The position numbers and the translations under genes were made by a program. A stretch of 63,874 nt of DNA, filler included, from Craspedostauros australis (Eukaryota): NCBI GenBank assembly GCA_030167865.1. It is 6 parts of 6 records of this genome, joined end to end, with 100 filler letters (N's around TTAATTAATTAA, not from the genome) between each part and the next. Parts side by side here need not be neighbours in the genome. Positions count along the whole stretch, not along the records: positions 1 to 20,514 come from JALAGF010006636.1; 5 more parts are not named here. The stretch is one strand, 5' to 3'. The notes under the pieces were generated by a model, which had not been told where the DNA came from, ran no database searches, and saw nothing but the letters and a program-made list of their open reading frames with translations. Below, piece by piece: positions 1,886 to 60,842 of the stretch. Position 1 is the first letter of the stretch; the number at the start of each line of letters is the position of its first letter.

Positions 1886-2243
1886 TGTTAAAATAGCGCG
1901 CTGCGGAATCGAACCACGGAGCCAGTCCACGCCGTGCATGAACACAAGAAATTAACGCTTATAACCCATGTCGCGACACCCTCCCTAATTCTTGGATTCA
2001 TGCCCTTGAGCCCCCCTATCATGAGGACCCCCCCACACTCTATCTTTATACTGCCGCTGTAGGCAGTCGGCAAGTTTCGGGTGTTTCTGTGTGTTTTTGT
2101 CGCAGGGGTGGGTACCAGCCGACGGAATCGAACCTTAGGCCACGCTACCATGTTAAAATAGCGCGCTGCGGAATCGAACCACGGAGCCAGTCCACGCCGT
2201 GCATGAACACAAGAAATTAACGCTTATAACCCATGTCGCGACA
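1886..2243 (-). mobile_element. Miniature non-autonomous LTR retrotransposon (TRIM-like), 358 bp
   Basis: Two identical 93-bp direct repeats (1886-1978, 2151-2243) with TG...CA ends. 6-bp TSD ACACAT at 1880-1885 and 2244-2249. On the minus strand, PBS TGGTAGCGTGG lies directly after the 5' LTR (2150-2140) and purine tract AGGGAGGG directly before the 3' LTR (1986-1979). The 172-bp interior has no recognisable retroelement coding sequence. Confidence 0.92.
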
Positions 2244-4042
2244 ACACATGCCGCAGTCTGGATCTTGGAGACGCAGCCGCCTGTTTCTGTTTGGCTCTCG
2301 CTTGCTATCAAATCGAGCGCAATGGTCTCCAATCGTTCGTATCGGAGGATCTGCGACCGCAGGACACCTACCAGGATCAGCAGATCGGGTATGCCTTGAC
2401 CGCACAGTATGTCGTATCGTTCCTGCGCTGTGAGCGGAATGCAGCTGCTGTCGATCGCGTCTTCGCGGTTGCTCGGGTTCTCTCCGTCGTCAGGACGGAC
2501 GAAGATGGCCCGCCATCGTTGCTCTCGGTGAAGAAGCTTCTGTTTCTTGAGTTCCAAAGCACTAGCCGTCGGGTTGCCTTGGCTGTGGCGAGTCATCTCG
2601 TACTCATCAATTGCAGCGCTCCATTGTGCAACGGGCATCCAATCCAGTGTAAGGGCAGGGCCCTGGATCACTTCCTCAAGCCCAAGAGTTGTCGGCATCT
2701 CTCGCACTGTGACTGTCGAGAAGTGTACGAGTTGATCGATGGCGTCGTTGTCTTCTCCAGGACCGTGGACTGGCGTGTCGCATTCGTGGAGGACCATCTT
2801 TGGTTTATTCCCTTTGATGCTGCCACGTGAGATAACAGCCCCATCCCCGCTTGGTCCTGTCCACTGCAGCGCCGTCACGTCCTTCCTGACGAGTGAAGGT
2901 CCCAAGCCGGACTCGCTCTCGCCACAGCGCTCTCCATCCCTCTCCTGCTGTTCAGCATTGTTGCGACGTTGGTGAACTCCAACTCCAGGTTGGATATTGA
3001 CTTTGTGGAAACGGATGCTGTCAATAGGGCGCTGTTGGCTACCCTCACTGTGGCCGTCGTCGCTGCCGCATCCCTCCAACCCACCATAGCCGTCATCACA
3101 TTCGTAGCCGTCGTATTCGTCACCCCAACTGAACGAGCTCTCGAGATTGTCGGTTTCCGACGCGTCGTCTGCTGGTGGCCCCACACGACGCAGCAGCGGG
3201 GGCTCGGGTGGCAATTGGAAGTCTGCATCACATCTACGCGCGTCGCGACTTGCGCTGCATGCAGTCATGGTCTTGTCATGGTCCGCTGCGTCCGCAGCGA
3301 AAAAGTTCATGACGGATGTCGGTGATTTCCTCTGCGTTCGGGATGACGGGAACCTCGAGATGCATGGAGAAGGCGAAAGCCCCATCACGGTCGGCACGAT
3401 GAGGGATGTCACGGAATAGCAATGGGTGCTTTCGTCCAGACCGTTGCAAGAGTAGGCGTCTCTCGGATAACGCTGTTCATGCTTGGAAGTGATAGTGCGA
3501 GATCTTGTGTTACTGTGGTTGCTGCTACCCACGCTGATGACTGGAGTATCCTCCGTTCGAATCGTGTCGTCGTTCATGCCATCATGACTACCATTGTACG
3601 TGCTGTAGTCGTCGTCACTATTGCCGATGGCATCAAGAGCAGCTATCGTTTCGGTGTCCGTGATGCTGCTATGCGTGGTGTGCGCGGAGATGTGGGATTG
3701 GATAATGCTGCCGCCCCACTGAGGTTGCCTCGCTGCACGCGATGTATGTGATACGTGCGACAGCACCGATTTGCTGGAACTCTGCCGCAGCGTATCGAGC
3801 TTGCTTTGTGCGAGTTGGTACATGATCCACCAGCTGCGGACAGTGCTCGCAAAAGGTTCCTTTTGTTGGTTGTGTTGCTGCTGATGCTTGAGCTTGATGG
3901 TTGGGAATTGTGGGAAATTCGTCACGGCTCGAGTGGTTGCTATGTTGGCGTCGCAGGAGTATCGCATGAGTGCAGGTTGGTGCTGATGTGCAAGAACATG
4001 GTGTTGCTGTACCATACGATGGGCAAGTCTCGCTTCTTTCAT
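2153..4042 (-). CDS. VxF/CSRNP-N-like module protein, paralog 1; C-terminus altered by the TRIM insertion
   Basis: 629-aa ORF with a low-complexity N-terminal part. Module: LVHFSTVTVREMPTTLG...GPALTLDW...IDEYE...PLTAQERYDIL..QGI...RLET. The last ~30 codons come from the LTR. Confidence 0.8.
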   Translation of the reverse strand: MKEARLAHRMVQQHHVLAHQHQPALMRYSCDANIATTRAVTNFPQFPTIKLKHQQQHNQQKEPFASTVRSWWIMYQLAQSKLDTLRQSSSKSVLSHVSHTSRAARQPQWGGSIIQSHISAHTTHSSITDTETIAALDAIGNSDDDYSTYNGSHDGMNDDTIRTEDTPVISVGSSNHSNTRSRTITSKHEQRYPRDAYSCNGLDESTHCYSVTSLIVPTVMGLSPSPCISRFPSSRTQRKSPTSVMNFFAADAADHDKTMTACSASRDARRCDADFQLPPEPPLLRRVGPPADDASETDNLESSFSWGDEYDGYECDDGYGGLEGCGSDDGHSEGSQQRPIDSIRFHKVNIQPGVGVHQRRNNAEQQERDGERCGESESGLGPSLVRKDVTALQWTGPSGDGAVISRGSIKGNKPKMVLHECDTPVHGPGEDNDAIDQLVHFSTVTVREMPTTLGLEEVIQGPALTLDWMPVAQWSAAIDEYEMTRHSQGNPTASALELKKQKLLHREQRWRAIFVRPDDGENPSNREDAIDSSCIPLTAQERYDILCGQGIPDLLILVGVLRSQILRYERLETIALDLIASESQTETGGCVSKIQTAACVVATWVISVNFLCSCTAWTGSVVRFRSALF

Positions 4043-4789
4043 TCACGTCGCGACTCGAGTCAATCGCACAGTGTGGCTGTGGTAGGCAAGGTGGGTCTTG
4101 CATCATCATGATCACACAGGCACACGAATGGTTGCACGAGGAAGCAAAAGGTGCTGTTGCCCAATCCATTGCTGAGTGTCGGTCGCACACTCCCACTGGT
4201 ACAAACGGGAATTCGGGATTGGCCACGAGATGTGCCTGCCTTCTGATGGACTTGCGGCGCGATCATTCCGTGCCGCTCCATGATTCGTCTTTTGGCGTTG
4301 TCCACCGCTCCGCTCCACACTCCACTACCTACATTTCGCTGGAGTGTGTTTGCGTTGGTTCTGCACCCGCGCGTCATCACTTCGGTTGTATGCAGCCAGA
4401 CCAAATTCAATTTGTGAGGGCCCGAGTTGGCGAACCCTGCAATCGCCCTTCTTTCACGGATCCATAAAGAAGGCTCGTCTATGGAGAAATGGCGTTGGTC
4501 TTCGTGCGTGAAGTTTTGACGACTTGTTTGTTGGACGCTCTTTTCCTTCAATGGTCGCACAAGCCAACACTTCACAACACGAAGCACAAGTACATGTGAT
4601 GCGTTGTGTAAGTTGGAAGCAGAGCAACCACATCGTGATCAGGTGATCTCTATCCTTTCCCATTGCTCACAAACTATTTCATTGCATTGCATTGCATACA
4701 GGCATCGAAGCTATCGCGCACCCGATGAGTGATATGTTGGCTTTGAACCATGTTGTATCCTCGTACAATGCGTTCTATTTACTCACGTT

Positions 4790-7429
4790 CTAGCTAGCCC
4801 GTGAAGGCATGCCCCTGCTTCGATCACGTTTCGGCTTTGCCATGCGCTTTGGCACTCTCGCCGCCTTCTTCTTGCGGCGCGTTTCACCACCGGGTTCCGG
4901 CGGTTGTGCCGCTTCTCTGCCGCTGTCCACTTCGTACAGTTCGTCTTCGTCGTCGTACTCGTAGTCGTCTTCGTCGCTGCTGAAGCTCCTGTCATCAGAA
5001 TCGTAGCTGCGATCATCTCTGCGTCGACCTGGATTGCCGCTGGGTTGTGGCAACGCTCGGCGTCTGGCCCTAGATCGAGATCGAGCCCTGCTCTTGTCTC
5101 TGGGGCGTCGTTCCGCATTGGAAGCAAGCTGCTTCTCGGCAGCCAGCGGTCGTGTGCGGGCCGGCGATTTGTGTCGTGCGCCAGCTCGCACGCGGCTGCG
5201 GGATCGTCCACGGTGCTGCCGATCTTCTGGCTCGTCTCGAATTGGGTGCGCCGCAACCTCCTGGTTTTTGTTGGTGGTGTTGCGGGCACGCGATCGCGAT
5301 CTGCCACGAGCAGTTCGGACACGCGATTGGGAGCGTCCCCTGGATCGTTCTGGCTGCGGTTTTCCTCGTCCATGTGAGGAGGAGCCATCGTCGTTGCTTG
5401 CCATCGAGGCTGTGACAGGTGATAGGATGGTCGATGCGGGTGCGTGCATTTGGGGCTGCGGTTGCTGTGGCGGTGGCGGGTGTTCGTATGGATACCTCTC
5501 CTGCTGTTGCTGCTGTTCGTACATTGGGTAAGCGTTCGGCTGTTGCGGATAGTGCTGCTGTGGCTGCGGAGGATGATGGTATTCTGGACCATACGGTGGT
5601 TGCGCATATCCCTGCGGATGGTGGTATGGCAGCGGTTGCATTGGAAGCTGATGATCTTGCGCATAGGCCTGGTTGTACGGCGGTGGATGGCCATGCGGGT
5701 AGCCTTGGTTGTATGTCTGTGGTGGCGGCGGTGGCTGCGGCGGATAGTGCTGTGCGTAAGCTGGATCGTAGGCCGGTTGTTGGTAGTTGGGGCCGTATCC
5801 CTGTGGCTGTCGATAGTCCGGTGGGTATCCCTGACCATACGGTTGTGGCTGGTGATAGTCTGGTGCGGGTTGCGGTGGATATGGCGGATTGGGCTGCTGT
5901 TGCTGCTGCATGGGAGGTGGATACGGCACTTGGATCTGCGCCACAGGTTTGTTGAAGTCCTCGTCATGTCCCTTCGAACGAAGCTCATGCCGGTCATCAT
6001 CCAGCTTCTTCTCATCGTGGTCTCGACTACGGCGCATATCATGATTGCTCATGTTGCCGCTGCTGATCGTGTCGTGATCGTCGTCTGCAGGCTTGTGCTT
6101 GTGGCGGTCATCATTGGCCTTGACACTGGTCTTGACCTTGACATTGGCAGGTTCTTTCGCAATCACCTTGGCGACGTCGTCCTTGACATCCGCCTTGACA
6201 TCATCCACGACATTGTCCTGCAGGTTCATCTTTTGTGGAAACTTGTCGACCATCTCATCGATCTTGTCCTCCTTGGTCGCACGCCGTCGTCGCATCAACG
6301 CTTGACGCGACAGCTTGGGCCGCTGCAACACCGTCGGTGAAAAGAGACTCTTGAATTGCGACACGTTATCGAGATGATCCAACAACCTGGTTTCCAATCG
6401 CTGTTGCAACACGACATGCGAATCCATGGTGGCTTGACGAATGGCGTCCCACGACACGCCGTTATCGCGCAGCAGCTTCTGCCGTTGTGTCGCCGACAAT
6501 GGCATACATTCGTCGTCATCGTCGTCATCATCATCGCGCTGCGTCTTGCGCCCATCGACACGCATTTGCAGATGCAAATAGAAATCTTCGTCTTCGCCCG
6601 CGTCGGTCTCGATATGCGGCACGGCCAAACGTTGGATACGATCCATCTCATCGATGGAAACGACGCAGCAATCGCTGGGAACCCATGCCATCGTGATGGG
6701 CGGTCCGTACATGACGGGGATATCGCCGACGGTCGTGGGGAAGAAGATGAGGTCGACATTGGAGAATCGGACGTTGCGTTTGGCACGTGGTTTCTTTTTC
6801 ATCATGCCGAAATCCCGATCATCTTCGTCATCGAGATGCGTGGGGCGGCTTTGACGCGGGCGGACGTTGGTTGTGGGGCTCGTGTGGATGCTGGCGTTAT
6901 CGGCATTCATGGGACGGTTCGGACTGAGTTTCCGCGAAGGCATAGTGAGTTTCTGTGGATGAGAAGGAACGAACGGTCTGCGTTGCGGAGGCAGACTGGA
7001 ATCATCCTGATGGAAATCGCCGTTGCGAGCGCCGTTGATGCGATTGCCAGTGTCATTGCTGTTGGTCGATCTCCTCATGCTGTTGACACCACGATCGTGG
7101 AGACTCGCGCTCTTTTTATCGTACTTGTCGTATTCGTATGGAGAAGAAGCGTTGCGATCCTGGTTTGCATTGATGGCCGAATTTCGGCGTCGACCAGCAT
7201 CGTACTGTCGGCCCAGCTGCGATGGGTGTTGTTGTGATGGCTGCTGGTGCTGCTGCTGCTGCTGCTGCTGTGGACGAGGTTGTTGCGATGGGTGAAGCCG
7301 TCGAGGCTGATGAGGCTGCCTTTGATGTGGATGTAGTTGATGTGGTTGATGTGGCTGCCTGTCATAAGAATCCGGTGGATTGCCATGATCATAGGCTTCC
7401 TCCATCGACCTTCGTCTGTGCATGCTCAT
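4790..7429 (-). CDS. VxF/CSRNP-N-like module protein, paralog 2, with Q/P/Y-rich and RS-rich regions
   Basis: 879-aa ORF. Central module KRNVRFSNVDLIFFPTTVGDIP..GPPITMAW...IDEMD...PLSATQRQKLLRDNGVS...QQRLETRLLD, followed by YPPQP-type repeats and RGRSRSR-type repeats. Confidence 0.82.
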   Translation of the reverse strand: MSMHRRRSMEEAYDHGNPPDSYDRQPHQPHQLHPHQRQPHQPRRLHPSQQPRPQQQQQQQHQQPSQQHPSQLGRQYDAGRRRNSAINANQDRNASSPYEYDKYDKKSASLHDRGVNSMRRSTNSNDTGNRINGARNGDFHQDDSSLPPQRRPFVPSHPQKLTMPSRKLSPNRPMNADNASIHTSPTTNVRPRQSRPTHLDDEDDRDFGMMKKKPRAKRNVRFSNVDLIFFPTTVGDIPVMYGPPITMAWVPSDCCVVSIDEMDRIQRLAVPHIETDAGEDEDFYLHLQMRVDGRKTQRDDDDDDDDECMPLSATQRQKLLRDNGVSWDAIRQATMDSHVVLQQRLETRLLDHLDNVSQFKSLFSPTVLQRPKLSRQALMRRRRATKEDKIDEMVDKFPQKMNLQDNVVDDVKADVKDDVAKVIAKEPANVKVKTSVKANDDRHKHKPADDDHDTISSGNMSNHDMRRSRDHDEKKLDDDRHELRSKGHDEDFNKPVAQIQVPYPPPMQQQQQPNPPYPPQPAPDYHQPQPYGQGYPPDYRQPQGYGPNYQQPAYDPAYAQHYPPQPPPPPQTYNQGYPHGHPPPYNQAYAQDHQLPMQPLPYHHPQGYAQPPYGPEYHHPPQPQQHYPQQPNAYPMYEQQQQQERYPYEHPPPPQQPQPQMHAPASTILSPVTASMASNDDGSSSHGRGKPQPERSRGRSQSRVRTARGRSRSRARNTTNKNQEVAAHPIRDEPEDRQHRGRSRSRVRAGARHKSPARTRPLAAEKQLASNAERRPRDKSRARSRSRARRRALPQPSGNPGRRRDDRSYDSDDRSFSSDEDDYEYDDEDELYEVDSGREAAQPPEPGGETRRKKKAARVPKRMAKPKRDRSRGMPSRAS

Positions 7430-8496
7430 TGTATCAACCCGCAGCTAGGATCGCTTGCGTGGTCGTATGGTCCCTGCCCAATGGTATGAACCTGCCGATC
7501 TTCGGTTCTCGGTCGCCTTCGATCGAAGTGAAGTCCAAAGAACACGCTCGTCACCAATGCTGAAATCAAGTCAAGCCAAACAGAGGAGATGAATGACCCA
7601 ACGAATCAATGAATGCTTCAAAAGTGGTGAAAGCGTGAAGATCTCCTGGACGGTCTCGGATGCCGACGGCTCTGGATGCTGCTTGTGAGGGTGTGATAGC
7701 TCTGTGAGAATGAGCAGTTGGACGTATCCTTGGGAGACTCTTCTTTGAGCACAAGCTCTTGCGTCGACGATCAAGATTGTGCATGTGTTGATTTCAAAGC
7801 ACAATAAATCGTTCTCTGTGTAGATGTGTGGTGGTGATTGCGTGTTTCTCTTCGCGGTTGGTGCACACGCAGACATGCGCTCTTTTCGCTCACTTTTTGT
7901 GCAGTCACAGCATGTCACGAAGAAGAGTTGGCGCACCCACGCTCATGCTCATTGGCCATCCAGTTTACAAAGTGACAGTATTGCCACCGAGAGGCTTAGG
8001 TGACTGTACCCGTTGGAGTTCTTCGAACAGCACAGCCACGATGTGCCAAAGCGCATTGCGATAACAGTACGGGAGTCACATGTCCATTCGAGACATAGCG
8101 ACCGTTAACAGTTTGTGTCATGGAGAAACAGGTGCGGAAATAGGCGCAAGAGAAACTTGTTTTCTTCTGGGACGAGTGTAGATTCGTTCGACTCAGACGA
8201 CTCGTGTGGATCCAACAGGTGCGACCAAGGGCTGCGCGCTTTTGTTTCTGTTGTGAATCTCTATGATCCAAACACCCTTTCTTGCTTCATTCGGCTTCCA
8301 CATGTGTTGTCCTCGCGCAAATGCCTTCAAAAGCACCAACTCCATCACACGGCACGAGTAGCGCAGTGACTGTTAATGTCTATTCCACTCAAGGTCCTAC
8401 AGCATGACATCACCGTTGCGTCCATTGTCGAGTATCGAAGAAAAATCCTGCTATTGTTTATGCTTCGTCTGCTGCTTGCGTTGCGTTCCTCTGCCT

Positions 8497-9372
8497 TCAT
8501 AGGCCATATCTGTATCGTGCCGCCCTTACACGAATGTCCCGGCGTGCCCGATGGCGCAGCTTCTCCTCCATCGACTCGATGCGGACATGCAAGGCCGTTT
8601 GCAGTCGCTGATGGTACAAAAACGCCGCTTGCGCCGTGGCTCGTCCAATCTCGTCAACTCCCGCCCCCGTGTCGATCAGCAGATGGTATCGTTGTTCGGC
8701 AGACAATGGTTGCATTCGGGTGGGATACATCGCACCGCGCTTGTATTGCTTGATGCCTTCCCACCGCGTCACATGCAACTGCGTGCTGTGGCATGCCTTC
8801 CACTCGATGGTGATCGGTGGACCGTCGGCGATGGGCTCGGCGCCCAGTATCATCGCGTGCTGGTGGATTGTGACGGTGGAGAAATGCACGCGGCGCGGTG
8901 GTAGAAGTGGTCGCTCATGAGCGGCATGATCAACGTGGTGACTGGCAACAGATTCGTCGTCGTCGTCGTCGTCTTGGCATTGCGTGGCAGTGCCGAAGCT
9001 TGAAAAATCGGAACGCTCCGTGGGTTCGGTTGCGACGCTGTAGTCTGTGGGATCAAAGCGCTTTGCACCAGTGGAGTCAACACATTTGGATTTGGGTGAT
9101 GCTGGTTGCTGTACCGATGTGAAGCAGCACTTTGGTGTTGTGCGCGTCGTGACGCTCGGCGTTGTTGTAACAATGGTGATGTCCTTTATTGGATAGTCGA
9201 TGCATCTGTCGCTGGTGTTGGCGTGGCGTCTGTTCAATGGCGACGTAGGGGAAGAAGTTGACTCGATGGACAAATCGGAGGAGGTGGACTCCAATGAAAC
9301 GGCATCGATGTCATCGCACGCCTCCAACGTCTTGCGATTTCTTCTGAAGGATGGGTATGCTGTTGCCGTCAT
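8497..9372 (-). CDS. VxF/CSRNP-N-like module protein, paralog 3
   Basis: Lies within ORF 8497-9885; the ATG at 9372 (MTATAYPSFRR) is chosen as the likely start. Module RRVHFSTVTIHQHAMILGAEP..DGPPITIEW...PLSAEQRYHLLIDTG...QRLQT. Confidence 0.8.
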   Translation of the reverse strand: MTATAYPSFRRNRKTLEACDDIDAVSLESTSSDLSIESTSSPTSPLNRRHANTSDRCIDYPIKDITIVTTTPSVTTRTTPKCCFTSVQQPASPKSKCVDSTGAKRFDPTDYSVATEPTERSDFSSFGTATQCQDDDDDDESVASHHVDHAAHERPLLPPRRVHFSTVTIHQHAMILGAEPIADGPPITIEWKACHSTQLHVTRWEGIKQYKRGAMYPTRMQPLSAEQRYHLLIDTGAGVDEIGRATAQAAFLYHQRLQTALHVRIESMEEKLRHRARRDIRVRAARYRYGL

Positions 9373-10170
9373 TGCAGAGATGCGAGTTCTGACGCCTGCT
9401 TCGGGCTTGCGTTTGTGAGTTTGTGGGTTTGTGGGAGTGTGGGTTTGCCTTTGGATTTGTCCTCTTACGTTTGGATCTGTGCGTAGATGAGCACTGCAAC
9501 ACATCACCTCTCCAAGTACCGACTGCGCACGAGTATCAGCACCAGCGTTTATGAGTGCGAGTACCAGAGCAGTTCTGCAGCCAAACGCTGGAGCTCCTCC
9601 AAGATTCGGAGTTGGCGTCGAAGCACCGCATCTGAAACATGCGCTGGGTACTCGCGCTCTTAGCCAATGGCTTTGCTCATCCACATCTGGAGGCGTTGAT
9701 GATGTTTTGTTGTTCGCACACACCCACGGATGGCGTGGACGGTCTTCTCTTTTTCGCATGGTTTGGATCCGTGGCGAGCCCAAAGGCGGAAATTGTCGAA
9801 GCGTCATTTTGTGAACAGAAGTTGCACAAGAACGTTGGTGAAACAGACAGCATCTGCACGACATTTCAGACTTATTGAAGGACAAGCCATATTTATCAAT
9901 GAGTCCCTTGTGACATGATGTATGTCGTTGACAATCATGAAGAAGCCAATTTCTTGTCTGATTCGACTTCTTGACAGAAAGCGGGCTTCGCTGTTCTTCC
10001 AGGTATCCATGGAATGATTCTGGCGGGCAGCCGAGTCCCTTTCACTCCTCAACATGCGAACAAAGACTGATCTGGACCAGCTGACACTCTCGTGCGGTGG
10101 AGGCAGCGCTTTGGTTGGGTTAGCCCAGTAATCGCTGGCCTTGGGCCAATCAGTCCCTCCAGTTGTGCGA

Positions 10171-10542
10171 CTAGACGGTGAAGTTTAACGAGAGGCGGAT
10201 GCGTGGACGGTAACAACACCGCATGGCACACCCTTGGTCTCGACGAAGTCGTCTCGCGTCTTGCGAGATACTTGTTGCGGATGCAGCCGCTGCGCTCAAA
10301 GAAACGAGGGCCGGGCATGGTACTCGTGGAATGGAAGGACAAGACATCATACGCAGGTACAAGTGATGTGGCTTTCCTTCGGCTGTGACTTGATGCTCTT
10401 CCGAAATGGAACCACAACCAGCAACAGGATACGACCGATCGATCACATCGACTTCGTCAAACATCAAGGTGGCGGCTGAAGCCTCAGCTGACAGGGAACA
10501 ACAAAGGAGCAAACGAAAGAGCAAGCGAAGAGCCTGATTCAT
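10171..10542 (-). CDS. Possible small secreted protein (hypothetical)
   Basis: ATG at 10542 begins a signal-peptide-like stretch MNQALRLLFRLLLCCSLSAEASA. No family recognised. Confidence 0.25.
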   Translation of the reverse strand: MNQALRLLFRLLLCCSLSAEASAATLMFDEVDVIDRSYPVAGCGSISEEHQVTAEGKPHHLYLRMMSCPSIPRVPCPALVSLSAAAASATSISQDARRLRRDQGCAMRCCYRPRIRLSLNFTV

Positions 10543-11009
10543 CACAGTTGTCTCTGTACTCCCAGAGAGGGAGATTCGTGCGCACAACACTGTTTCCGTT
10601 TGAGTGAAGCGTGCATGCGCGTGTGGGAGGGGTAGAGACATACGTACAGTACACTGAGTTGTGCTTTGTATTGTTTTACTATCTATTCTTCGTTGTATTT
10701 AGTCCTCTACTAGCATTATGTAGGGGTGTTCCATCGGTTCCCGCTCGTTCTATGCGCTGCCTGCTGGGTCGTTTGCCGATTCCACCAATCTATGGGTGCG
10801 GCGCGTATCTGTATTTGTGTTTCGGTGGGATGCACATCGCGTAGTGCGCTGTGCTCTATCTCTCCACTGTCGTAAATCTGGCTGTCACGTTTCAGCCATC
10901 CATCTCAATGTGTGCGAAGCATGGGTTCATGTAACCCACGTTCTCCGCATGTATTTGTACTTCTGCATGCTCTATTTGTTTGCCCTTCCCCGCGAATCTC
11001 ACACACAAG

Positions 11010-14000
11010 TTACGATTTGGAGCTCAGTTTCTTCCGAGCATCGTTGATCCGAAGCTGCAGCTTGGTCTCGAGCCGTTGCTGGCATACCAAGCGCGCATCC
11101 AAGCCTGCGTTGTAGATTGCGGCCGGACTGACCCCGGAGCGTCTCAAGATGCCAAATCGCTGCTGAGCGCTGAATGACCTCACCGTGCGTGGCACAGGAC
11201 TGCCAGGAATGTGGGACGTGTTGGCTGGAACCGAAGTGGGAGTGCTGAGGACGCTCTTCGTATGCTTCCATCCTTCCCATTGCTGGACATTAACGTGGAC
11301 GCTGTGGTCAGCTTTCCAATCGATGGTCAGCGGCGGGCCCTCGAGGACTGGTTCGGCTCCGAGGATCATGGGATGCCTGTGAACGGTGACGGTGGAGAAG
11401 CGCACTTGCCTGCGCCGCGCCGACTTGTGGGTGGTCACCGTGTCGATGCTTACATCGTTTTTTACGCTCTCTGCAGCGTGGACGTTGCCCGCAGTGGCGC
11501 TGCTGCTGTTGCTGCTGGCAGTCGTGATGGTGGTGATGCTGATGCTGCCATCGTCGTCGACTGTCTTGAGGTTGCGCATGCTCTTGCTTTGCTGTTTGGG
11601 CTTCTTCGGTAGTGTCTTCTTGTTGGTGGTGGCTGTAATGTTGCCATCGTCTTCGACGGTCTTGAGATCCTCCAAGCTCTTGCTCCGCCTTTTGGGCTTT
11701 GCAGATACAGGCCTCTTCTTTTTGTTGCCGTTGCCGATGGTAGTGACAACAGTAGCCATGTTGCCATCGTCTTGGAGGGTCTTGTGGTCCTCCAAGCTCT
11801 TGCTCCGCTTTTTGGGTTTCTTCGATACTGGCCTCTTCTTGTTGTTGCTGGTATTGGCGGTCGCGGCGATGATGCCATCGTCTTGGACGGTCTTGTGGTC
11901 CTGCAAGCTCTTGCTCCGTTTGTTGGGTTTCTTCGATACTGGCCTCTTCTTCTTGTTGCTGTTGTTGTTGTTGGTCGCGGTGGTCGTGGTGATGTTGCCA
12001 TCGTCTTGGACGGTCTTGAGGTTGCGCAAGCTCTTGCCCCGGTTTTTTAGCTTGGTCCATACTGACCTCTTCTTCTTGTTGCTGTTGTTGTTGGTCGCGG
12101 CGGTCGTGGTGATGTTGCCATCGGCTTCGACGGTCTTGAGGTTGCGCATGCTTTTGCTCCGTTTTTTGGGTTTCTTCGAGATGGGTCTCTTCTTGTTGTG
12201 GCTTTCGTTGGCGGTGATAGTTGTGATCCCGGTATCATCTTTGACGGTCTTGAGGTTGCGCATGCTCTTGCTTCGCTTCTTCGATACTACCTTTTTGTTG
12301 GTGCTGTCGGTGGCAGTAGTAGTGGTGGCGTTGTTCTCTGCTCGTACAGTCTTCTTTGCTTTGCTGTTGCTGGCATTGGCAGGACCATCGACAGCTTTGG
12401 CTCCGTTTTCAGCGTCGTTCTTTGGAGGAGCCTTCTTCTTTGTCTTCGCCTTGTTGCCTTTGCCCAGCAACTTGCCCTGGCTCTTCTCCTTCTTCAGGTT
12501 CTTGCTTTTGCTCTTGCGCTTAGCCTTCTTCCGTGGCTTCGTGGGCTTTGGTTCCTCGCTCTTGACCTCGTTGCATTCGACATTTGCGGTGGTAATGATG
12601 TTGTCGACGAGAGTGCTTTCGACGGTCGCTGGTTCATCGGTCGCGCTTTCGACGAGAGGAGCTTCGGCAGTAATGTTATCATCGGTGGTCTTTTCGACGG
12701 CAGTGCTTTCGACGATGGTCGCCTCGACAGTCTCGATCTCGATGGCAGTGGTTGCAACGGTAGCCCTTTCGATGACAGCGCGATCGACGCTAGGAATGCC
12801 ATATGTGGTGATCTCAACGGCGGTGTTTGCAACGCTCGCACTACCGACCGTAATGCTTCCAACTGCAGTTGGTTCATCAGTGGTGCTCTCGACGATAGAG
12901 GCCTCGACGGAAGTGTTTTCATTGGTAGCCTCTTCGTCGGTAGTATCTTTATCGGTGGTTTTCTTGACGATGGTGGCCTCGACGGTAGTGCATGGAACGG
13001 TAAGACATTCGACGGTACGGCTATCATTGATAGTGTCTTCGAGAATAGTGCTTGCAACCGTAGCATGTTCATCGGTGGCGTTTTGGGCGGAAGCCGTTGT
13101 ATCAGTAACGCTTCCGACTTTGGCGCTTCCGACCTTGGTGCTTTCAACCACAGTTGATTCATCGGGGGTGCTTTCATTCGCAGTGCTTGCGCTGATAGCG
13201 CGATCAACGCTCGTGACGTCATCAGTGGTTCTCTCAATGGTAGTCTTTTCATTGAGGGCGCTTGCGACTGCAGTGTCATCGAGGGTGGCGCTCTCGACGG
13301 GCGTGCTTTTCACGAGAGTATCTTCATCGGCATCACTTCCGACCGCAGTTGATTCATCCGTAGAATCGTCGACGATAGCTGCCTCGACAGAAGTGCTTTC
13401 GACGGAAGTGCTGTCATGCGCAGTGCTCTCATCGGCAGTTGATCCGTCTGTAGTATCTTCGGCAGCAGTGCCTTCGACTGTAGTTGGTTCATCGGGGGCG
13501 TTCCTGATGGTAGTAGTTTCGCCACTGATGATGTGCGTAACGGTCGTGTTTTCGCTCGTGAAGTTTGCAACGGGAATATTTTTACCGGTGATGTCCGTAA
13601 CGGCAATATCTTCATTAGTGGCGCGTTCATCGGCAGTGCTTGCAACGGCAGTGCATTCGACATCAGAGATTGGGATGTCGCTACCGACGATGGTCAACTC
13701 GACGGGAGAATCTTCATCGGTAGTCTTTGCAACGGTGGCGCTTTCGAAGGGCATGCTTTCGCTGACGGTGATTTCGCTGATGGTGCTATCGACGGAACTG
13801 GTGTCATCGATGATGTTTGCAACAGTGGTGTGTTCATCGGTGGCGTGTTCGACCGTTATGCTTTCCGCCGATTTGCTTTCCACCGATATGCTTTCATCGC
13901 TCACGCTTTCGACCGGAGTGATATCGATGATAGTGCTATTAACGTTGGCGATTGCGTCGCTCGTGCTTTCAGCGGCAGTTGGTGCATCCTCATTCGACAT

Positions 14001-14213
14001 GACATCGGCTGGGCGGATTGGATCTTCCACAGGCAGACACGCATCATGCATGTCATCCTCAGACTCGATGTCAGAATCCATATCCGATTTATCGAAGGAC
14101 GTGCTGAGCATGCAGGTGATATCCGATGATGGAGCGTGCAACACCTCGCATTCGACAGGTGGATCCAACCCCACTTGGGAGCAGCGACGGCCGGGAGGAT
14201 CGCAAAGCGTCAT
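11010..14213 (-). CDS. VxF/CSRNP-N-like module protein, paralog 4, with an acidic T/S/E/V-rich region and seven K-rich repeats
   Basis: Lies within the 1133-aa ORF; likely ATG at 14213 (MTLCDPP). C-terminal module RRQVRFSTVTVHRHPMILGAEP..EGPPLTIDW...FSAQQRFGILRRSGVS...QQRLET. Confidence 0.82.
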   Translation of the reverse strand: MTLCDPPGRRCSQVGLDPPVECEVLHAPSSDITCMLSTSFDKSDMDSDIESEDDMHDACLPVEDPIRPADVMSNEDAPTAAESTSDAIANVNSTIIDITPVESVSDESISVESKSAESITVEHATDEHTTVANIIDDTSSVDSTISEITVSESMPFESATVAKTTDEDSPVELTIVGSDIPISDVECTAVASTADERATNEDIAVTDITGKNIPVANFTSENTTVTHIISGETTTIRNAPDEPTTVEGTAAEDTTDGSTADESTAHDSTSVESTSVEAAIVDDSTDESTAVGSDADEDTLVKSTPVESATLDDTAVASALNEKTTIERTTDDVTSVDRAISASTANESTPDESTVVESTKVGSAKVGSVTDTTASAQNATDEHATVASTILEDTINDSRTVECLTVPCTTVEATIVKKTTDKDTTDEEATNENTSVEASIVESTTDEPTAVGSITVGSASVANTAVEITTYGIPSVDRAVIERATVATTAIEIETVEATIVESTAVEKTTDDNITAEAPLVESATDEPATVESTLVDNIITTANVECNEVKSEEPKPTKPRKKAKRKSKSKNLKKEKSQGKLLGKGNKAKTKKKAPPKNDAENGAKAVDGPANASNSKAKKTVRAENNATTTTATDSTNKKVVSKKRSKSMRNLKTVKDDTGITTITANESHNKKRPISKKPKKRSKSMRNLKTVEADGNITTTAATNNNSNKKKRSVWTKLKNRGKSLRNLKTVQDDGNITTTTATNNNNSNKKKRPVSKKPNKRSKSLQDHKTVQDDGIIAATANTSNNKKRPVSKKPKKRSKSLEDHKTLQDDGNMATVVTTIGNGNKKKRPVSAKPKRRSKSLEDLKTVEDDGNITATTNKKTLPKKPKQQSKSMRNLKTVDDDGSISITTITTASSNSSSATAGNVHAAESVKNDVSIDTVTTHKSARRRQVRFSTVTVHRHPMILGAEPVLEGPPLTIDWKADHSVHVNVQQWEGWKHTKSVLSTPTSVPANTSHIPGSPVPRTVRSFSAQQRFGILRRSGVSPAAIYNAGLDARLVCQQRLETKLQLRINDARKKLSSKS
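11535..12285 (-). repeat. Coding tandem repeat, 7 units of ~32-41 aa (KKRSKS[ML]xxLKTVxDDGNI...KKRPVSKKP)
   Basis: Units are visible in both the protein and the DNA (recurrent gttgccatcgtct...cggtcttg...ctcttgctcc). Confidence 0.9.
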
Positions 14214-16314
14214 CGTCGTCCGTCGTTGATGCGGATTGGATGGGGTCGATTGATGCAGTATGGATGTGAATTGTCTGTGTTTGTTTGGTTTATGTGGCTG
14301 GAACGTCCATGCAGGGACGGCGCTTGTTGTGCGAGGTGCAGTAAACGGCGTGACAGCCCAGGATGTTGGCAAGTACCATGAGTGCGAGTATGTTCCTGTG
14401 CAGGTGTGCAACTGTTGCTGAATGGTAGAAGTCCGAGTTTGTCAATTGACCGTTGCCAGTGGTGTGGTCATCGCTGTTTTCGCTGGAAGCCACAGACCGT
14501 GAAGAGACGCGAATGTAGTTCGTTTGCCCCAACGCGACATGTGAGGGTTAGGGATGGAGGCAACGCGATGCACCGTAAATGGCCTCGTTTGCTCTACCTT
14601 CTGCACGCTCGATAAATGCAACAATCTTCGCCTGGGAGTAGAATTGTCACTGTGAGTGAAAACGTTACAAACTCCTCAGAAGCGCGAGGAATTGAGACAG
14701 TCACACATGACTGTGCTGTGGAACGCCAAAAGGTGTGCGACTGAGAGTTCGTCATCATTGAGTCGGTGGGGTGTTTCTGTCCCATCGACATCTGTCGCGA
14801 CCATGCGAAAACAGCACAGAGAACAACAGGTCAGCAGTTGTCACACTGCACACCATAAGCACGAGGAAGTATCATTGTGCGAAAAGATCCGCAACGAGAT
14901 TGGGTTTGGTCTGTTCATTCTGCAATGACCTCTTCGCACCTCCGAAGTACTATCGAGCGATGCGCACGAGTAGACAATTTGCACCGTCACATCGCGAATC
15001 AGGTTCGAATTGTGGATAGGCAGAGTTCACTGGTCGTTGCTGTGTTGTTGGCAGTTGCGAGATTCAAATGATAGTCAGGTGCTGATTGAGTGCACATTCG
15101 CGACGTGATGTTGACTCATGGTGGACTTTGCGCATGCTGTTACCTTGTTCATAGCGCAAAGCCGTTAGCATCCCTTTCAAAACGTCATTCCCCGGATCTT
15201 TCCAAAAACACCTGCGAGCATTGCACTTACGGCCATGCTGCACTTCGAATTCCTCTTTGAATGTTGACAAGCGCCAACGAACGTCATCCAATGCATACGA
15301 GCTACATACCAACCACTATACGAAGCGAGCGGTTGCAACGTAGCAATGATGCCGTTAATCACATACACTGGCTCCGAGTATAGCATTGAGGAACATGTGA
15401 ATACTGCTTACAGTATCCATGGCCAGAAACTATTGCAAGATGCTTTTCAAAAGGAAGATAGAGAATGATCCTCTGGTCTTCTCGACTCAATTTTGGATCG
15501 TGTTGGTCGATTATTGCGGTCGGCGTTGTTCGCATCTCCACGTTCGTCGTCGACTTTGTGGTGACTCGGCGAAGCGTTGTTGGCTCCTGTGACGTGGTTG
15601 CCAAATTGTGACGGCCAACTTGACCGAAAGTGTGACAGCGTCCTTGCTGTGTCATCACAGACGTCTCATGAGACACTAAGGCACAAATATCGATTCTTAC
15701 GGCTTCATCTTTACGATCACATCCAACGGAAATACGAACAATTACATAACTGTTTCCGACTATTGGTGAAAGAGAATTAGTCCCAGACAATTGTCTCCAT
15801 AAGTGTGAAACTGCCTGTGACGCCGTCTATGCCTTTTTAGTCTATCCCGTGACGATTGTGAAGGATGCGATCGCACGATTTATCGTCACACTGTTGTGCC
15901 TTGGGTACACACCAAAGAAGCCCAGCACACTTCGCGAGAAGGCCTTGCTACCGTTGTTGTTGCTGCTGCGTTTGATCACAAATTTGCGTGTGGCGATGCT
16001 TCGTCTCCAGCCTCATGCCGCAAAAGAAGCAACATTTTCACGGAAGAGCGTTTCTTTCTGATCCGATTACACGATCACAAACCCATTCGTGCCAGCCTTT
16101 CCGATGTTGTGGTCGCCGCAAGAGCGACAGATGGAGCCATTGCACGATCAGATGCACCAGTCCGCAGTTGGACAGCAGCGATTCCACAAAGCAAAGCAAC
16201 CACATGGATACCACCACACTCACAGAGAACTGAAGCCATCCGACGATCTCCTTCACAGCGTCGTCATAAACAGCAGACGCAACTCTCGACCAACCCAAAC
16301 AAACGGAACGAAAG

Positions 16315-17133
16315 ATGCTGGAATCCATCGCATCCAAGTTCATGATGAATCCTATCATCTCCCCGCGGGCCAAGCGCTTCAGCTTCGGCAAGCCCGAGAG
16401 ACAGTCGTCGAGTGACACCGCGTCGACCGCTTCGCTGCGCAAGTCGCCATCGTCGCTGTCTCTGTCGTCGATGGAATCGAAGAACAAACGCAGGACGGTG
16501 CGATTCTCCGATGCCTGCATCTACGAGTTCCCCACGATTCCTGGTGGCAACACCGTGGCCAGCATCTCGGGTCCTCCCATCGCCTTGGGGTATCTCACGA
16601 ACGATGATGACAGCAACGCCAGTCTACCACAGTCGCCGACGACGACATCCTCATCGCCCGCTTCGCCACCATCATCCAGACCCACAAGAGTCATGATCGT
16701 GGCCGTCTCCGACATGGAGCGCTATCAGAGACTGCATTCGAGATATCGCTACCGACCTCTGTCGGACCGCCGGCGACGCGATCTGCTGGCCAACAATGGA
16801 CACAGCGAGAAGGATATTCAGAAGGCCGTGACGCAGGCCACCTTCGTCAAGCAGCAGCGATTGGAGACGCGGCTGTTGGATAAGTTGGCGACGTTGATGC
16901 AGGGCAATGGTGCGCAGCAACAATCGACGGCACCAGCGAAGAAGACGATGGATGACGCAACATCCACGCTTTCCGCATCCTCCTCCAAACAGACACAGCA
17001 ACCTGCAGTCGCCGATGGCGTTTCATTGGACTGCAGCAACCTCAATCTGGCATTGTCCGCCGTCAAGATTCCACGGTGGGACAAGCAGGCCTTCGCTACG
17101 GCCTGTCCTCGATCCGCGCTGGTCATCTCTTGA
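16315..17133 (+). CDS. VxF/CSRNP-N-like module protein, paralog 5 (divergent orientation)
   Basis: 272-aa ORF. Module RRTVRFSDACIYEFPTIPG...SGPPIALGY...VSDMERY...PLSDRRRRDLLANNGHS...QQRLETRLLD. Confidence 0.82.
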   Translation: MLESIASKFMMNPIISPRAKRFSFGKPERQSSSDTASTASLRKSPSSLSLSSMESKNKRRTVRFSDACIYEFPTIPGGNTVASISGPPIALGYLTNDDDSNASLPQSPTTTSSSPASPPSSRPTRVMIVAVSDMERYQRLHSRYRYRPLSDRRRRDLLANNGHSEKDIQKAVTQATFVKQQRLETRLLDKLATLMQGNGAQQQSTAPAKKTMDDATSTLSASSSKQTQQPAVADGVSLDCSNLNLALSAVKIPRWDKQAFATACPRSALVIS

Positions 17134-20558: not shown

Positions 20559-20570
20559 TTAATTAATTAA
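20559..20570. other. Artificial contig-joining linker
   Basis: TTAATTAATTAA (stops in all six frames) flanked by N runs. Confidence 0.97.
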
Positions 20571-20668
20571 NNNNNNNNNNNNNNNNNNNNNNNNNNNNNN
20601 NNNNNNNNNNNNNNCCAAACGCTCCTCCAAAACCGACTTTTCTCAATGGATTCCTGAAAAAGATCCAA

Positions 20669-23600
20669 GTGAAAGCGCTCGGGACTGTGGAGTGGCACGT
20701 TCTGGATGTGACGGGCAGCCCGCGTACGCTACGACTACCCGCCTTCCATGTGCCTCAATCACGCGTCAAGCTCATCAGCACGTCAAGCCTCTTGGAAGAA
20801 TACCCTGGTGAGACCATCACCTTTGACAAGACCTCCTGCAAACTCAGCGGAATTAAGGGAAGCGACAACCGAAACGCAATCATCGCGATCTACAAGAAGA
20901 CGACGAAGCTCCCCACCTCAACTGGATATGGCTCGGACAACATCCACGACCTTCCATCGGCACTCTCCTCAATCGTCTCAACTGTCTCGGAACACAACGT
21001 GAATATATCCGAACCGCAAAAAGAACTCCTTCGATGGCATTATCGCCTCGGACACTTATCCTTCGGTCGAGTGAAGTTCCTATTGCGATCGGGTGTGCTC
21101 ACAGGGTCCGAAGCATCAAAGAAGATGCACACGGCAGCTGCCAAAGTGATGAGCCTCCCCCTCTGCGCTGCGTGTCAGTTCGGAAAACTGCACCGACGCC
21201 CATCACCAGGTATAACTCAGCATGTTGTCCGTGACAGACAAGGAGCCCTACGCACCGATCACCTGTTCCCTGGCCAACAAGTATCCGTTGACCACTTCAT
21301 CGGACGCACACCAGGACGCCTCTTCTCAGGACGAGGAAAAGGCGACCCAACCGACATGCACAAGGGAGGAGCCATCTTCGTAGACCATGCTTCAGGTTAC
21401 ATCCACGTGGAACCGGTGGCCGCCCTCACGACTCATGCTACTCTAGAAGCAAAAGAGAAGTTTGAGCTTATGTGCCGCGATGTAGGCGTACCCGTCAGAT
21501 CCTACCTCTCGGACAACGCCACTACATTCACATCGCCAGAATACACGAGACACCTCGAGGCCTTCCATCAGGTCCACCGGTTCGCCGGTGTTGGGGCGCA
21601 TCACCACAACGGGATAGCTGAAAGAAGCATCCGAACTATTGTGTCAATGGCTCGGACCATGATGATGCACCAAAGCATCCACTGGCCAGACATCTTCGAT
21701 GCGCAACTGTGGCCGATGGCCGTGGTGCACGCGGCTTACATCTACAACCGTGTCCCTAACCCAGCAACAGGGCTAACCCCCTACGATATACTTGCTCGTA
21801 TCCGACTTCCGCTCAAGCAACTACACAACTTGCATGTGTGGGGCAGCCCCGTTTATGTACTGAACAAAGCGCTGGCTGATGGACGCAAGATCCCGCGCTG
21901 GGAACCAAGAGGCGAACGATACGTGAACATGGGCCTCTCAACAAAGCACGCGTCCACGGTCCCTCTAGTACTGTCGTTGCGGACTGGATCTATCACACCG
22001 CAGTTTCATGCTGTGTTCGACGACTGGTTCGCCACCATATCAACGGACCCCAAACACTTGCCCGACTATCAGTCTGATGAATGGACGCGGATGTTTGGAG
22101 ACACGACGTTTCAGTACCCATTTGACGAAGATGATGTGGAAGCCATGGAACAAGAGGACACCTTCGCGTCGGACGCCGTCGATCAGGAACGCCTGCGACG
22201 CAATGATGCTCCGGTTCCAGGAACTTCTCCGCCAGTTGTATACCAACCACCACCCGAAAGGCGAGAAGCAGGAACGGCTCCGGTACCCCCAGGCGAAGAG
22301 CTCCCGGTAACTCCGCCAATGGTTGACCCCCTCAGCGATTCCTTGGCCTCTCGGATGCAAGCCTCAGAGGGAGAGGTGCCACGAGTACAGCCAACTGAGG
22401 GAGCCGCAAAGAGTTCGCTAGAAGTCGCACCAGCAGAGCAATTAACTCCACGGGTTCCACGACCGGAACCCACACCGGTACCGCCGATCACCTTGAAGCA
22501 GGAACCGGCATCCCAAGTCTACACGCGAACATCCTCTCCAGTCCCCGTTATAGACGAAGCAGTCCCAACACAGAGGCCGCGGAGCACGCGAGCGCGCAAG
22601 CAACCCCTGCGTTTCACTTACCAACGCTTGGGAGGCAAAGCCGCGTGGCTGGATGACGAGGACGCCGAAGAGTACTACCTCTGCCCAGCGGTAGCCAGCA
22701 TGCATGAGGACGAACATGATGAGACAGTGCTCCAATTGCACCCTGACTCACCCTCTCTGATGAAATTCTCACACGCCATTCTCGACTGTCTCAAAACAAT
22801 TGAACCTCTCCAACGAAAAGGCACCGACTCTCTCTCCATCGATCTTCACCAATTCAAGGTGGACGCCCACTACCTACTACGTCGATTGAGGCTACGTTTC
22901 AAGACTTTGAATCCGCACGCCCCAAACTGTTCGCTCCCACCACTTGAGCCGAAGCACGACAACCGCAAAACGGAAGCCTACATCAACATGGCTGATTGGT
23001 GGGTCCCCGACCCCCACACCATGAACGACGAAGGCCTCGTCGACTTCGATGAGGTCTACGAGGACCTCTACAACGACATGACGGCGTACTTCGACGAGGG
23101 TCTTAATCAACTCATCTGCAGCGAGAGCAACAGGACCCTACTGACAAACTACGCAGTAGAGAAGCTCATCAACAAGCTTAGCGAATTCATCCGCACCGGT
23201 GCTACAAGCCCTGACTTCGACGCCCTGGACTTCCTGCGACACGCAAAGAGGGGCGGATGGCACAAAGACGATATCGAGACTTCGCTACGTGCGGGTGTGC
23301 TCCCACCAAAGAGCAACACAACCGCTAGCACCCTGTGGAAGCGAGCACAGTCTGTGTGGACCGAGATTGGTCATCACCCTCGTGCTCGCCTGATGTACGA
23401 ACTGTTCCGACGCCAGATCACCACTCTGCGTCCTGGACCATGGCCGTTGCCGAATGAACGCGATGTGAACGAATTTGCTCTGGAATTGTGGCCTTTCAAC
23501 GCGAAACCTTTGTTAACAGAGCCCAACACACGAAATTCGAACAACAAAACATCACCACATTCTCTCCTGCGTGTCGACCCAACAACGATCCTGGACACCA

Positions 23601-25366
23601 ACAACATTATCCCGTCAACTGACTGGGTCAACATCGAACAACACGCCTACGCTGCATCACTTGTCGAACCCAGTTCTGACACGACCAACTACCCTATCTA
23701 CGTGGACGACCACATGATGAGCTACTTCGTCACAGGCGGCGACTTCGACATCACGGAACGCTCAACAGCCTACAAAGCATCAACCAACGATCCAGACACT
23801 CTCTCCTTCGATGAAGCCCTCAAGGACAACAACAAAGAAGAGTGGATGCAGGCTGCAAGCAAGGAGATCAAGGAACTCACCGAAAAAGGCACCTGGGAAG
23901 AAGTGGACAGAACCCGTGTCTTCGACCCAGTCTACCCTGGAACGTGGGTCTTTCGTCGCAAGCGCCTCCCAGATGGAACCATCAAGAAATACAAGGGCCG
24001 CTGGTGCTGTCGAGGCGATCTTATGAAAGAAGACGCCTCCACCTACGCTCCCGTCGTGGCATGGTCGTCTGTCCGTATCTTCCTGAGCACCGCCATCGTG
24101 ATGGGTTGGCCCACGACCTCTATCGACTTCACCAACGCCTTCGTCCAGGCCAAGATCCACAAGCCTGTCTACCTCTGCCTCCCTCGCGGATTCAAATCCA
24201 GCAAGGGCGCCAACACGTGCCTCAAGCTCAACAAAAGCTTGTACGGTTTGACTATTGCTCCCCGCCTCTGGTATGATCACCTCATCAAGGCACTTCTCGG
24301 CGAAGGATTCAAGGCATGCGATCAGGAACAATGTCTGTTCATCAAGCCGGAGATCATGATCGTGCTCTACGTTGACGACGCTGGCATCGCGTCCAAAACA
24401 CAGAAGGTGGCGGACGCATTCATCGTGTCGATGCGCGAACGTGGGTTCGAGCTCACTCGGGAAGGCAGCTTCACGGAGTTCCTGGGAATTGAGCTACTCA
24501 GGGACCCCAAGTCGGACTGCATTCATCTCCGCCAGCCAGGACTTATTCAGAAGGTTCTCGCTTCCACAAGAATGACTAACTGCAGCCCATGCCCTGTACC
24601 AACGACACAGATTCCGCTCGGAAGGGACACAGGCGGACCACTCTTCGACGAGAAGTGGAACTATCGCTCCGTCGTCGGCATGTTGCTCTATTTGACAACG
24701 AACACGCGCCCTGACCTCGCCTTCGCCGTCTCTCAAGTCGCTCGCTTCGGGCACGACCCGCGCCGCTCCCACGGAAAAGCGATCAAACGAATCATGCGCT
24801 ACCTCAAGAGCACCGAGAGCATGGGTACGATCGTCAATCCTACGGGCAAGCTCGACCTCAAGTGTTTCGTGGACGCCGACTTCGCCGGACTCTACAAGCG
24901 CGAAGACGACACGAGCGCAACTTCCGTCACTTCCCGCACCGGATACCTCATCACATTGGGTGGGTGCCCGCTGATCTGGAAGTCAAAACTCCAGACGGAG
25001 ATCGCTCTCTCCACCATGGAAGCGGAATACGCGGCCCTGTCCCTGGCTATGCGCGCACTCATCCCCATCCAACAGCTCATCCGCCAAGTCATCGACAACG
25101 CCGGCACAAGCATGCCGCTGCACACGCAGCTCCAATGTACGGTGTTTGAGGACAACCAGGGATGTATTGCGCTCGCCACCAACCATCAACCTACGGCACG
25201 CACTAAACACTTCCTGACCAAGTGGCACTTCTTCTGGTACTGGGTCAAGGCAGGGTTCATTTGCATCACACACATCGCCACAACCGAACAACCCGTCGAC
25301 ATCTTCACAAAGGGGCTGGCGGTCGTTCTCTTCGAGTATCTGCGCAAGCAGATTATGGGCTGGTAA
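20669..25366 (+). mobile_element. pol: Ty1/copia LTR retrotransposon pol (integrase-RT-RNase H), 5'-truncated by the contig end
   Basis: Uninterrupted 1565-aa frame. HHCC (WHYRLGH...CAAC), integrase D-D-E (VSVDHF, SDNA, NGIAER), RT YVDD, RNase H (FVDADFAG, STMEAEY, FEDN, DIFTK). The INT-RT-RH order identifies copia. Confidence 0.96.
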
Positions 25367-32953: not shown

Positions 32954-32965
32954 TTAATTAATTAA
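32954..32965. other. Artificial contig-joining linker
   Basis: TTAATTAATTAA flanked by N runs. Confidence 0.97.
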
Positions 32966-33009
32966 NNNNNNNNNNNNNNNNNNNNNNNNNNNNNNNNNNN
33001 NNNNNNNNN

Positions 33010-38047: not shown

Positions 38048-38091
38048 NNNNNNNNNNNNNNNNNNNNNNNNNNNNNNNNNNNNNNNNNNNN

Positions 38092-38103
38092 TTAATTAAT
38101 TAA
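38092..38103. other. Artificial contig-joining linker
   Basis: TTAATTAATTAA flanked by N runs. Confidence 0.97.
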
Positions 38104-60640: not shown

Positions 60641-60842
60641 NNNNNNNNNNNNNNNNNNNNNNNNNNNNNNNNNNNNNNNNNNNNACCACACAACCACACG
60701 ACCACAAATCAACACGGAAGTCAACACGATGTCCCAACCGCACCTTCCTGAATTCCGCCAACTCCATCTCATAAAACCAAATCACCATCCACCTCACTCC
60801 AACTTCCTTCGAATCAACCCAACTTGACACAACAATACAACC

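Follow-up and report, generated by a model that had tools for sequence, protein, structure and literature searches.

The stretch of DNA from Craspedostauros australis analysed here (63,874 nucleotides including filler, joined from six records of assembly GCA_030167865.1; referred to below as the window) contains, between positions 2153 and 17133, five genes (g1 to g5) that share a conserved module of about 110 residues on low-complexity bodies. We consider it quite probable that these genes encode regulators that bind protein phosphatase 1 (PP1), and that they represent a diatom family derived from a CSRNP-type N-terminus which has lost the Cys-rich region. Six-frame translation yields five stop-to-stop open reading frames (ORFs), four on the minus and one on the plus strand (Table 1), and the module positions agree with what had been predicted from the sequence. 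In each gene the module, taken as beginning at the V of VxF and ending at the T of RLET, is uninterrupted; it always follows the order VxF, G..P..GPP, PLS..QR..LL...G and [QE]RL[EQ]T, and has 13 columns that are invariant in all five copies. The consensus originally written for it proved too strict, although the module itself is present in all five: g1 has no K or R before VHF and ends in ERLET, g3 ends in QRLQT, g4 has SFS in place of PLS, and g5 has GY in place of xW. The rest of the proteins indeed differs, as BLASTP among the full-length sequences (E<0.01) produced alignments confined to the module (26-47% identity). Large hydrophobic residues make up 16-22% of the bodies, and a profile built from the five modules found no sixth copy in the window.

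Table 1. The five module-bearing genes, in window coordinates; paralogs of g1, g2 and g5 lie on contig C6401 of the same genome.
Feature	Position	Strand	Stop-to-stop ORF	Description
g1	2153..3823	-	2153-4042(-)	~556 aa, Ser/Gly/Asp-rich body, C-terminal module, no basic residue before VHF
g1 start				Probably Met74 of ORF, from alignment with C6401 paralog
g1 module	2324..2728	-		VHF ... GPA ... ERLET
g2	4790..7429	-	4790-7444(-)	~879 aa; module at ORF residues ~223-352, then Q/P/Y-rich stretch and RS-rich tail
g2 start				MSMH, common to C6401 paralog
g2 module	6389..6772	-		RNVRF ... GPP ... QRLET
g3	8497..9372	-	8497-10041(-)	~291 aa if start is Met224; start uncertain, ORF open to 10041
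g3 composition				T/S/D-rich body, C-terminal module; sister of g4
g3 module	8596..8889	-		RRVHF ... GPP ... QRLQT; copy folded alone and with PP1
g4	11010..14213	-	11010-14441(-)	~1067 aa if start is Met77 (presumed)
g4 composition				Acidic T/S-rich repeats, then Lys-rich repeats (6 pattern matches, KRSKSMRNLKT-type unit), then C-terminal module
g4 module	11064..11405	-		RQVRF ... GPP ... QRLET
g5	16315..17133	+	16270-17133(+)	~272 aa, Ser-rich, central module, conserved C-terminal island
g5 start				MLES, common to C6401 paralog
g5 module	16498..16869	+		RTVRF ... GPP ... QRLET; 88% identical to C6401 paralog

PP1 owes its specificity to its partners, and the earlier proposal that the modules dock on PP1 is supported by both the motif and a modelled complex. 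The pattern [KR]x0-1[VI][^P][FW], which we take to describe the RVxF motif, occurs in g2 to g5 (4/5), in 31 of 42 modules from the same genome and in 105 of 145 modules from databases (three of the 145 being genes of this genome), while the V and F of VxF are conserved at 94-98%. Three PP1-type genes were found in the genome. The proposed modelling of the modules with diatom PP1, carried out for g3, gave a positive result: folded without alignments together with the PP1 from contig C3865, the g3 module reached a score of 0.92 (three runs) vs 0.00 for the best of three controls, with contacts that agree for at least 79% and a predicted local distance difference test score (pLDDT) of the partner of at least 75. 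Among microbial pairs, 51 of 78 solved and 2 of 108 mismatched ones attain the mark applied to such scores; for eukaryotic pairs the figures are 39 of 65 (solved) and 2 of 126 (unrelated).

In this model g3 would bind in the RVxF-phi-phi mode, its residues 13-17 pairing with PP1 residues 275-280 at an expected error of 0.4-0.6 A; this partner strand presumably equals human PP1 292-297 (offset +17). With human numbering and pocket names as we assume them, the sites contacted are I169, L243, F257, R261, L289, C291 and F293, with further contacts presumably at Y78, D71, R96, R132-Y134, V250-D253 and 273-279; the Phe of RRVHF would pair with the equivalent of C291 and the next strand with F293-I295. 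Beyond RVxF-phi-phi, the interface holds 12 of the 18 conserved columns vs 16 of the 73 others (Fisher p=5e-4), among them, in the predicted complex, the invariant Arg75 and Arg103 as well as Thr106 (g3 numbering). Because conserved columns outside the docking motif are thus concentrated at the modelled interface, the model suggests that the module as a whole is a PP1 clamp, and the shared domain very probably clamps onto PP1. Human CSRNP3 is reported to bind PP1-alpha via RVxF (PMC11260172), and CSRNP1 is termed a PP1 regulator (PMC11536154). Searches of the Protein Data Bank (PDB) for the module were negative: for a profile of 24 modules the best sequence match (E 0.52, 30 columns) was the ubiquitin-associated (UBA) region of MARK3, taken as a chance helix-turn-helix likeness, Foldseek gave no matches at E<=0.001, and a wide VIA-align search, in which the hairpin part was barely tested, matched only the long C-terminal helix, to coiled coils (Z up to 6.5).

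The original prediction also pointed to the N-terminal domain of animal CSRNP. This likeness stands as a remote N-terminal kinship without the Cys-rich part (HHalign 97%), although the modules miss the Pfam cut-off for CSRNP_N (PF16019): its gathering score (27 bits) is not reached by any of the five. Searching the genome with PF16019 resulted in three weak matches, i.e., a paralog of g5, a chance match and a Cys-rich CSRNP-like gene (G000:C3167:3353-4912 (+), equal to L038:2354-3913; 22-25 bits). The protein encoded by the latter has 154 relatives, and those with a named source are diatoms, whereas CSRNP is described from animals in the cited literature. Since 6 of 12 tested diatom CSRNPs pass the PF16019 cut-off, the family is linked to animal CSRNP indirectly, via Pfam. 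Profile-profile alignment (HHalign) of the family with diatom CSRNP gave 97.7% (E 2e-12, 55 columns); a second pair of alignments, which extends as far as the helix carrying the invariant Arg, gave 97.3% (85 columns), and the five window modules alone gave 96.5%. After removal of the RVxF-phi-phi columns (the first 17) 87% was retained (E 3.8e-6), and 30 column shuffles gave 8.6% at most. AlphaFold predicts a hairpin followed by two helices and a long helix for the g3 module (pLDDT 92); the elements of the CSRNP-like protein are predicted in the same order (pLDDT 71). The Cys-rich region, for which about 10 conserved cysteines are reported in CSRNP (PMC1950078), occurs in the protein from C3167 and in the relatives of that protein and is missing in g1 to g5, with 4, 0, 0, 0 and 2 Cys after the module, respectively. 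The family is, judged by these profiles, a probable offshoot of CSRNP rather than a member of it.

The union of four single-protein searches (33, 59, 13 and 52 matches) places at least 82 family loci on 66 contigs of this genome, a lower bound by the design of the search, although some of the loci are near-identical copies that lie on short contigs; a Lincoln-Petersen estimate of 72 was discarded because it falls below the observed union. In public data the profile of the five modules matches 2,928 clusters (50% identity) at E<=0.001. Among the 150 best database matches, five are identical to genes of this genome and hence not independent; since three of these, including the C6401 paralog of g5, come from transcriptome-derived sets, members of the subfamily are transcribed. 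GD[NH]P occurs in 114 of the 150 matches and is missing from the five window genes, whose subfamily mostly lacks GDNP and ends in QRLET. Two proteins labelled Stauroneis constricta fall in this subfamily, which is, therefore, older than the present lineage. No orthologs of g1 to g5 were found among 142 foreign modules, one of which has g3 as best match (31%), and exact look-up with the chosen starts retrieved 0 of the 5 window proteins from the collection. A homolog search restricted to longer proteins gave two matches among 8,000 scored candidates, and a metagenome scan gave 76 family loci; a separate metagenome scan for the QRLET pattern returned 221 stretches, 0 of which were confirmed. In the Atlas the module comes out near unnamed clusters from diatoms and oomycetes (0.94) and near a CSRNP_N cluster from oomycetes (0.93; 21% of its members), matches of low recognition value. 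Some members (P0007, P0010, P0013; G000:C4829) contain two modules in one protein. The family is thus large and absent from Pfam naming, and it matters more than the cluster by which it came to notice.

That the genes cluster beyond chance is confirmed: under a Poisson model, 82 loci in 65.9 Mb give 0.019 expected loci per 15 kb, and the probability of at least four further copies within 15 kb is ~5e-9, or 9e-5 if as many as 1,000 loci are assumed. Another locus lies within 12 kb for 21 of the 82 vs ~3% expected, a count that includes the window five and one two-module ORF. The view of the cluster as a special one is not supported, since other arrays occur on C5392 (four members), C6401 (four), C2395 (two) and C3840 (two), and 4 of 14 metagenome loci of at least 7 kb hold two or three members, some second copies being partial ORFs. 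The C5392 array (G000:C5392:19306-44028) has ORFs of 800-1612 aa. On contig C6401 the order and relative orientation of g1, g2 and g5 recur in a set of paralogs, accompanied by a fourth member of the family; no paralogs of g3 and g4 were found there. Module identities are 56% (g1), 72% (g2) and 88% (g5), synonymous divergence (dS) of the modules is 0.36-1.45, and the ratio of nonsynonymous to synonymous divergence (dN/dS) is 0.26 for g1, 0.19 for g2 and ~0.19-0.2 for g5. C6401 was considered as an allele and rejected, as body identity is 33-60% and hardly any of the intergenic DNA can be aligned. The array is thus old, as the original prediction held, and on these comparisons the g1-g2-g5 block is an ancient duplication under purifying selection.

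A tree of 42 modules (105 columns), chosen from 50 extracted after leaving out six near-identical copies, one partial module and the CSRNP-like gene, places g1, g2 and g5 each with its C6401 copy (support 100/98-100) and g3 with g4 (100/98). Its sampling began from g4 as query and so favours the subfamily of the window genes, while many of the 82 loci are outside the sample. The five modules and the C6401 copies, nine in all, lie within a clade of 18 rows (95/83) and a less well supported one of 13 rows (85/80). On their own the five are not an exclusive clade, as the best tree needs four changes to group them, though all belong to the 18-row subclade; a clade of the five and their three C6401 partners is not rejected (approximately unbiased test, p-AU 0.094). 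The cluster would have arisen by old local duplication within one subfamily, with g3/g4 added by a further tandem step.

The idea that the disordered bodies are exchangeable is not supported by the three paralog pairs. In pairwise alignments each of g1, g2 and g5 keeps a body homologous to that of its partner, with conserved islands such as, in g2, the ILSPV-ASM-SNDDGSSSHGRG stretch and, in g5, the C-terminus, and body exchange was rejected for all three. Module and body have evidently been inherited together in each paralog, with no sign of swapping, and it is in displaying this joint inheritance that the cluster is useful. Among details of the bodies, the last 31 codons of g1 derive from a direct repeat of 93-100 bp (window 1886-1978 and 2151-2250), possibly a small mobile element, with a 93% identical copy at C6401:5966-6065. 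RxxS/T sites number 19 in g4 and 23 in g2, and the Lys-rich repeats of g4 with their RxxS sites (window 11300-12300, minus strand) lie beside the module as candidate substrate sites in cis.

As modelled, the RVxF motif would enter the RVxF pocket of PP1 and the phi-phi strand would add to its last beta-strand, whereas the GxxP..GPP hairpin, the PLSxxQR helix through its invariant Arg, and the QRxET helix would wrap the beta12-beta13 loop as well as the rim of PP1's catalytic face. Such a clamp could reshape the substrate grooves, with the body of each paralog setting location and substrates, and dozens of paralogs may compete for the three PP1 catalytic subunits. We infer targeting rather than inhibition of PP1, because the bodies are many, distinct and partly conserved. 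That the modules act mainly as PP1 inhibitors or sinks, perhaps switched by phosphorylation of the conserved QRxET threonine, is a possible but somewhat doubtful alternative. It would fit the modelled contacts at the catalytic rim (presumably human R96, R132-Y134, V250-D253 and 273-279) and the location of partner residues R103 and T106 in the interface. The metal ligands and what we take to be H125, R221 and Y272 are, however, outside the confident contacts, though an unlisted residue may still touch them, and dozens of different bodies with conserved islands fit targeting better than plain inhibition. Human CSRNP3 is itself reported to inhibit PP1-alpha (PMC11260172). It seems very unlikely that the module does not bind PP1 and instead binds nucleic acid or serves as some other interaction domain, in line with proposals for the CSRNP transcription factors, which are reported to be nuclear, to bind AGAGTG and to transactivate (PMC1950078). 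The invariant arginines of the module, the basic stretches of the bodies and the 11 of 42 own-genome modules that miss the RVxF pattern would suit such a role; conservation of V and F and the mapping of conserved residues to the modelled PP1 interface argue against it, as does the loss of the Cys-rich region, which the same source counts among its two candidates for DNA binding (PMC1950078).

Several observations weigh against our reading of the family as PP1-binding derivatives of CSRNP. The window module g1 lacks the basic residue before VxF, and the SILK motif, an optional feature of such interactors, occurs upstream of RVxF in 0 of 5 window modules and, by a loose pattern, in 12 of 101 database members. 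The complex model covers the g3 module only, its benchmarks do not extend to disordered or predicted chains, and as RVxF:PP1 complexes have already been solved its pass may partly be memory. None of the five full ORFs comes near any Pfam cut-off, CSRNP_N is matched only weakly by 6 of 24 modules (best E 0.0026), and 0 of 150 database relatives match it at E<=0.01. When RVxF-phi-phi is kept and the rest shuffled, HHalign still gives up to 89.9% (score 43.6 vs 78.1), and block 2 alone gives 3%. The last three results would be expected if the likeness were convergence on RVxF-phi-phi in a PP1-binding module that has no kinship with CSRNP. We regard this as quite unlikely, since the G..P..G[GP]xP.LG/W..E block aligns even without those columns, CSRNP_N is the sole Pfam family matched by more than one of the 24 modules, the order of secondary structure is common to module and CSRNP-like protein, and the Atlas CSRNP_N cluster has no counterpart in 30 matches of the window's other VxF family (see below). 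As to the array, its being a selected, co-regulated unit rather than a by-product of local duplication is unlikely. The order and relative orientation of g1, g2 and g5 are kept on C6401 despite the module divergence and the near absence of alignable intergenic DNA, but that copy is without g3 and g4, four kin in the 13-row clade sit on other contigs, arrays are common throughout the family, and synteny of three genes following a segmental duplication requires no selection.

The window holds, at 60828-61520 (+), a member of a second large and unnamed diatom VxF family (KSVAF..V.V ... RGLE ... VLDEQ), with 81 matches among 113 candidates in the same genome. This gene has no Pfam match; in the Atlas it gives clusters from diatoms at 0.95 and, at 0.87, a weak lead to PP1c_bdg. 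Its family also forms arrays, on C2070 (four) and C2054 (three). Just downstream of g5 in the joined window lies a Copia-type retrotransposon pol ORF (20567-25366, +), with motifs that we take to be integrase, reverse transcriptase and RNase H, and at 32962-38099 (+) a large protein of PTSG repeats in which a domain containing Cys is repeated; a relative adjoins the family member C4349:9935-11536.

In the literature searched, from which supplements and subscription journals were outside coverage, no RVxF-type PP1 partners of diatoms were found. The family supplies at least 82 candidate partners for the three PP1 genes of one genome and thousands across diatoms, and suggests that a PP1 clamp forms the conserved core of CSRNP. 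A wider proposition is about as likely as not: that diatoms possess a private PP1 code, in which CSRNP has been stripped to a self-folding clamp reaching from the RVxF pocket to the catalytic face, present in about a hundred copies per genome, often in arrays, and each on its own disordered targeting arm; that together with the second VxF family, which is of similar size, this would form much of an undescribed diatom PP1 interactome; and that the hold of animal CSRNPs on PP1 could likewise be modelled on this complex.

Among known systems, the closest is CSRNP/AXUD1 (PF16019), with which the diatom module shares the order VxF, hydrophobic strand, G..P..G, LG/W, (D)xYE and helix with invariant Arg, as well as the predicted hairpin-helix layout. 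It differs in lacking the Cys-rich region, in falling below the Pfam cut-off, in its compact module ending in QRxET, in its attachment to unrelated bodies and in its number, at least 82 loci vs the one Cys-rich CSRNP-like gene found in the genome. A scheme of RVxF-type PP1 regulators based on short linear motifs is given in PMC11536154. The RVxF-phi-phi regulators with which we compare the module are GADD34/PPP1R15A, PNUTS, spinophilin/neurabin and Phactr. The modelled diatom module resembles what we take to be the features of these single proteins: an RVxF followed by a hydrophobic pair that would add a strand to PP1, further contacts beyond RVxF-phi-phi and disordered surroundings. Unlike these regulators, it has no PDB sequence match (best E 0.52) or clear fold match, and it is predicted to fold as a hairpin-helix unit of its own.

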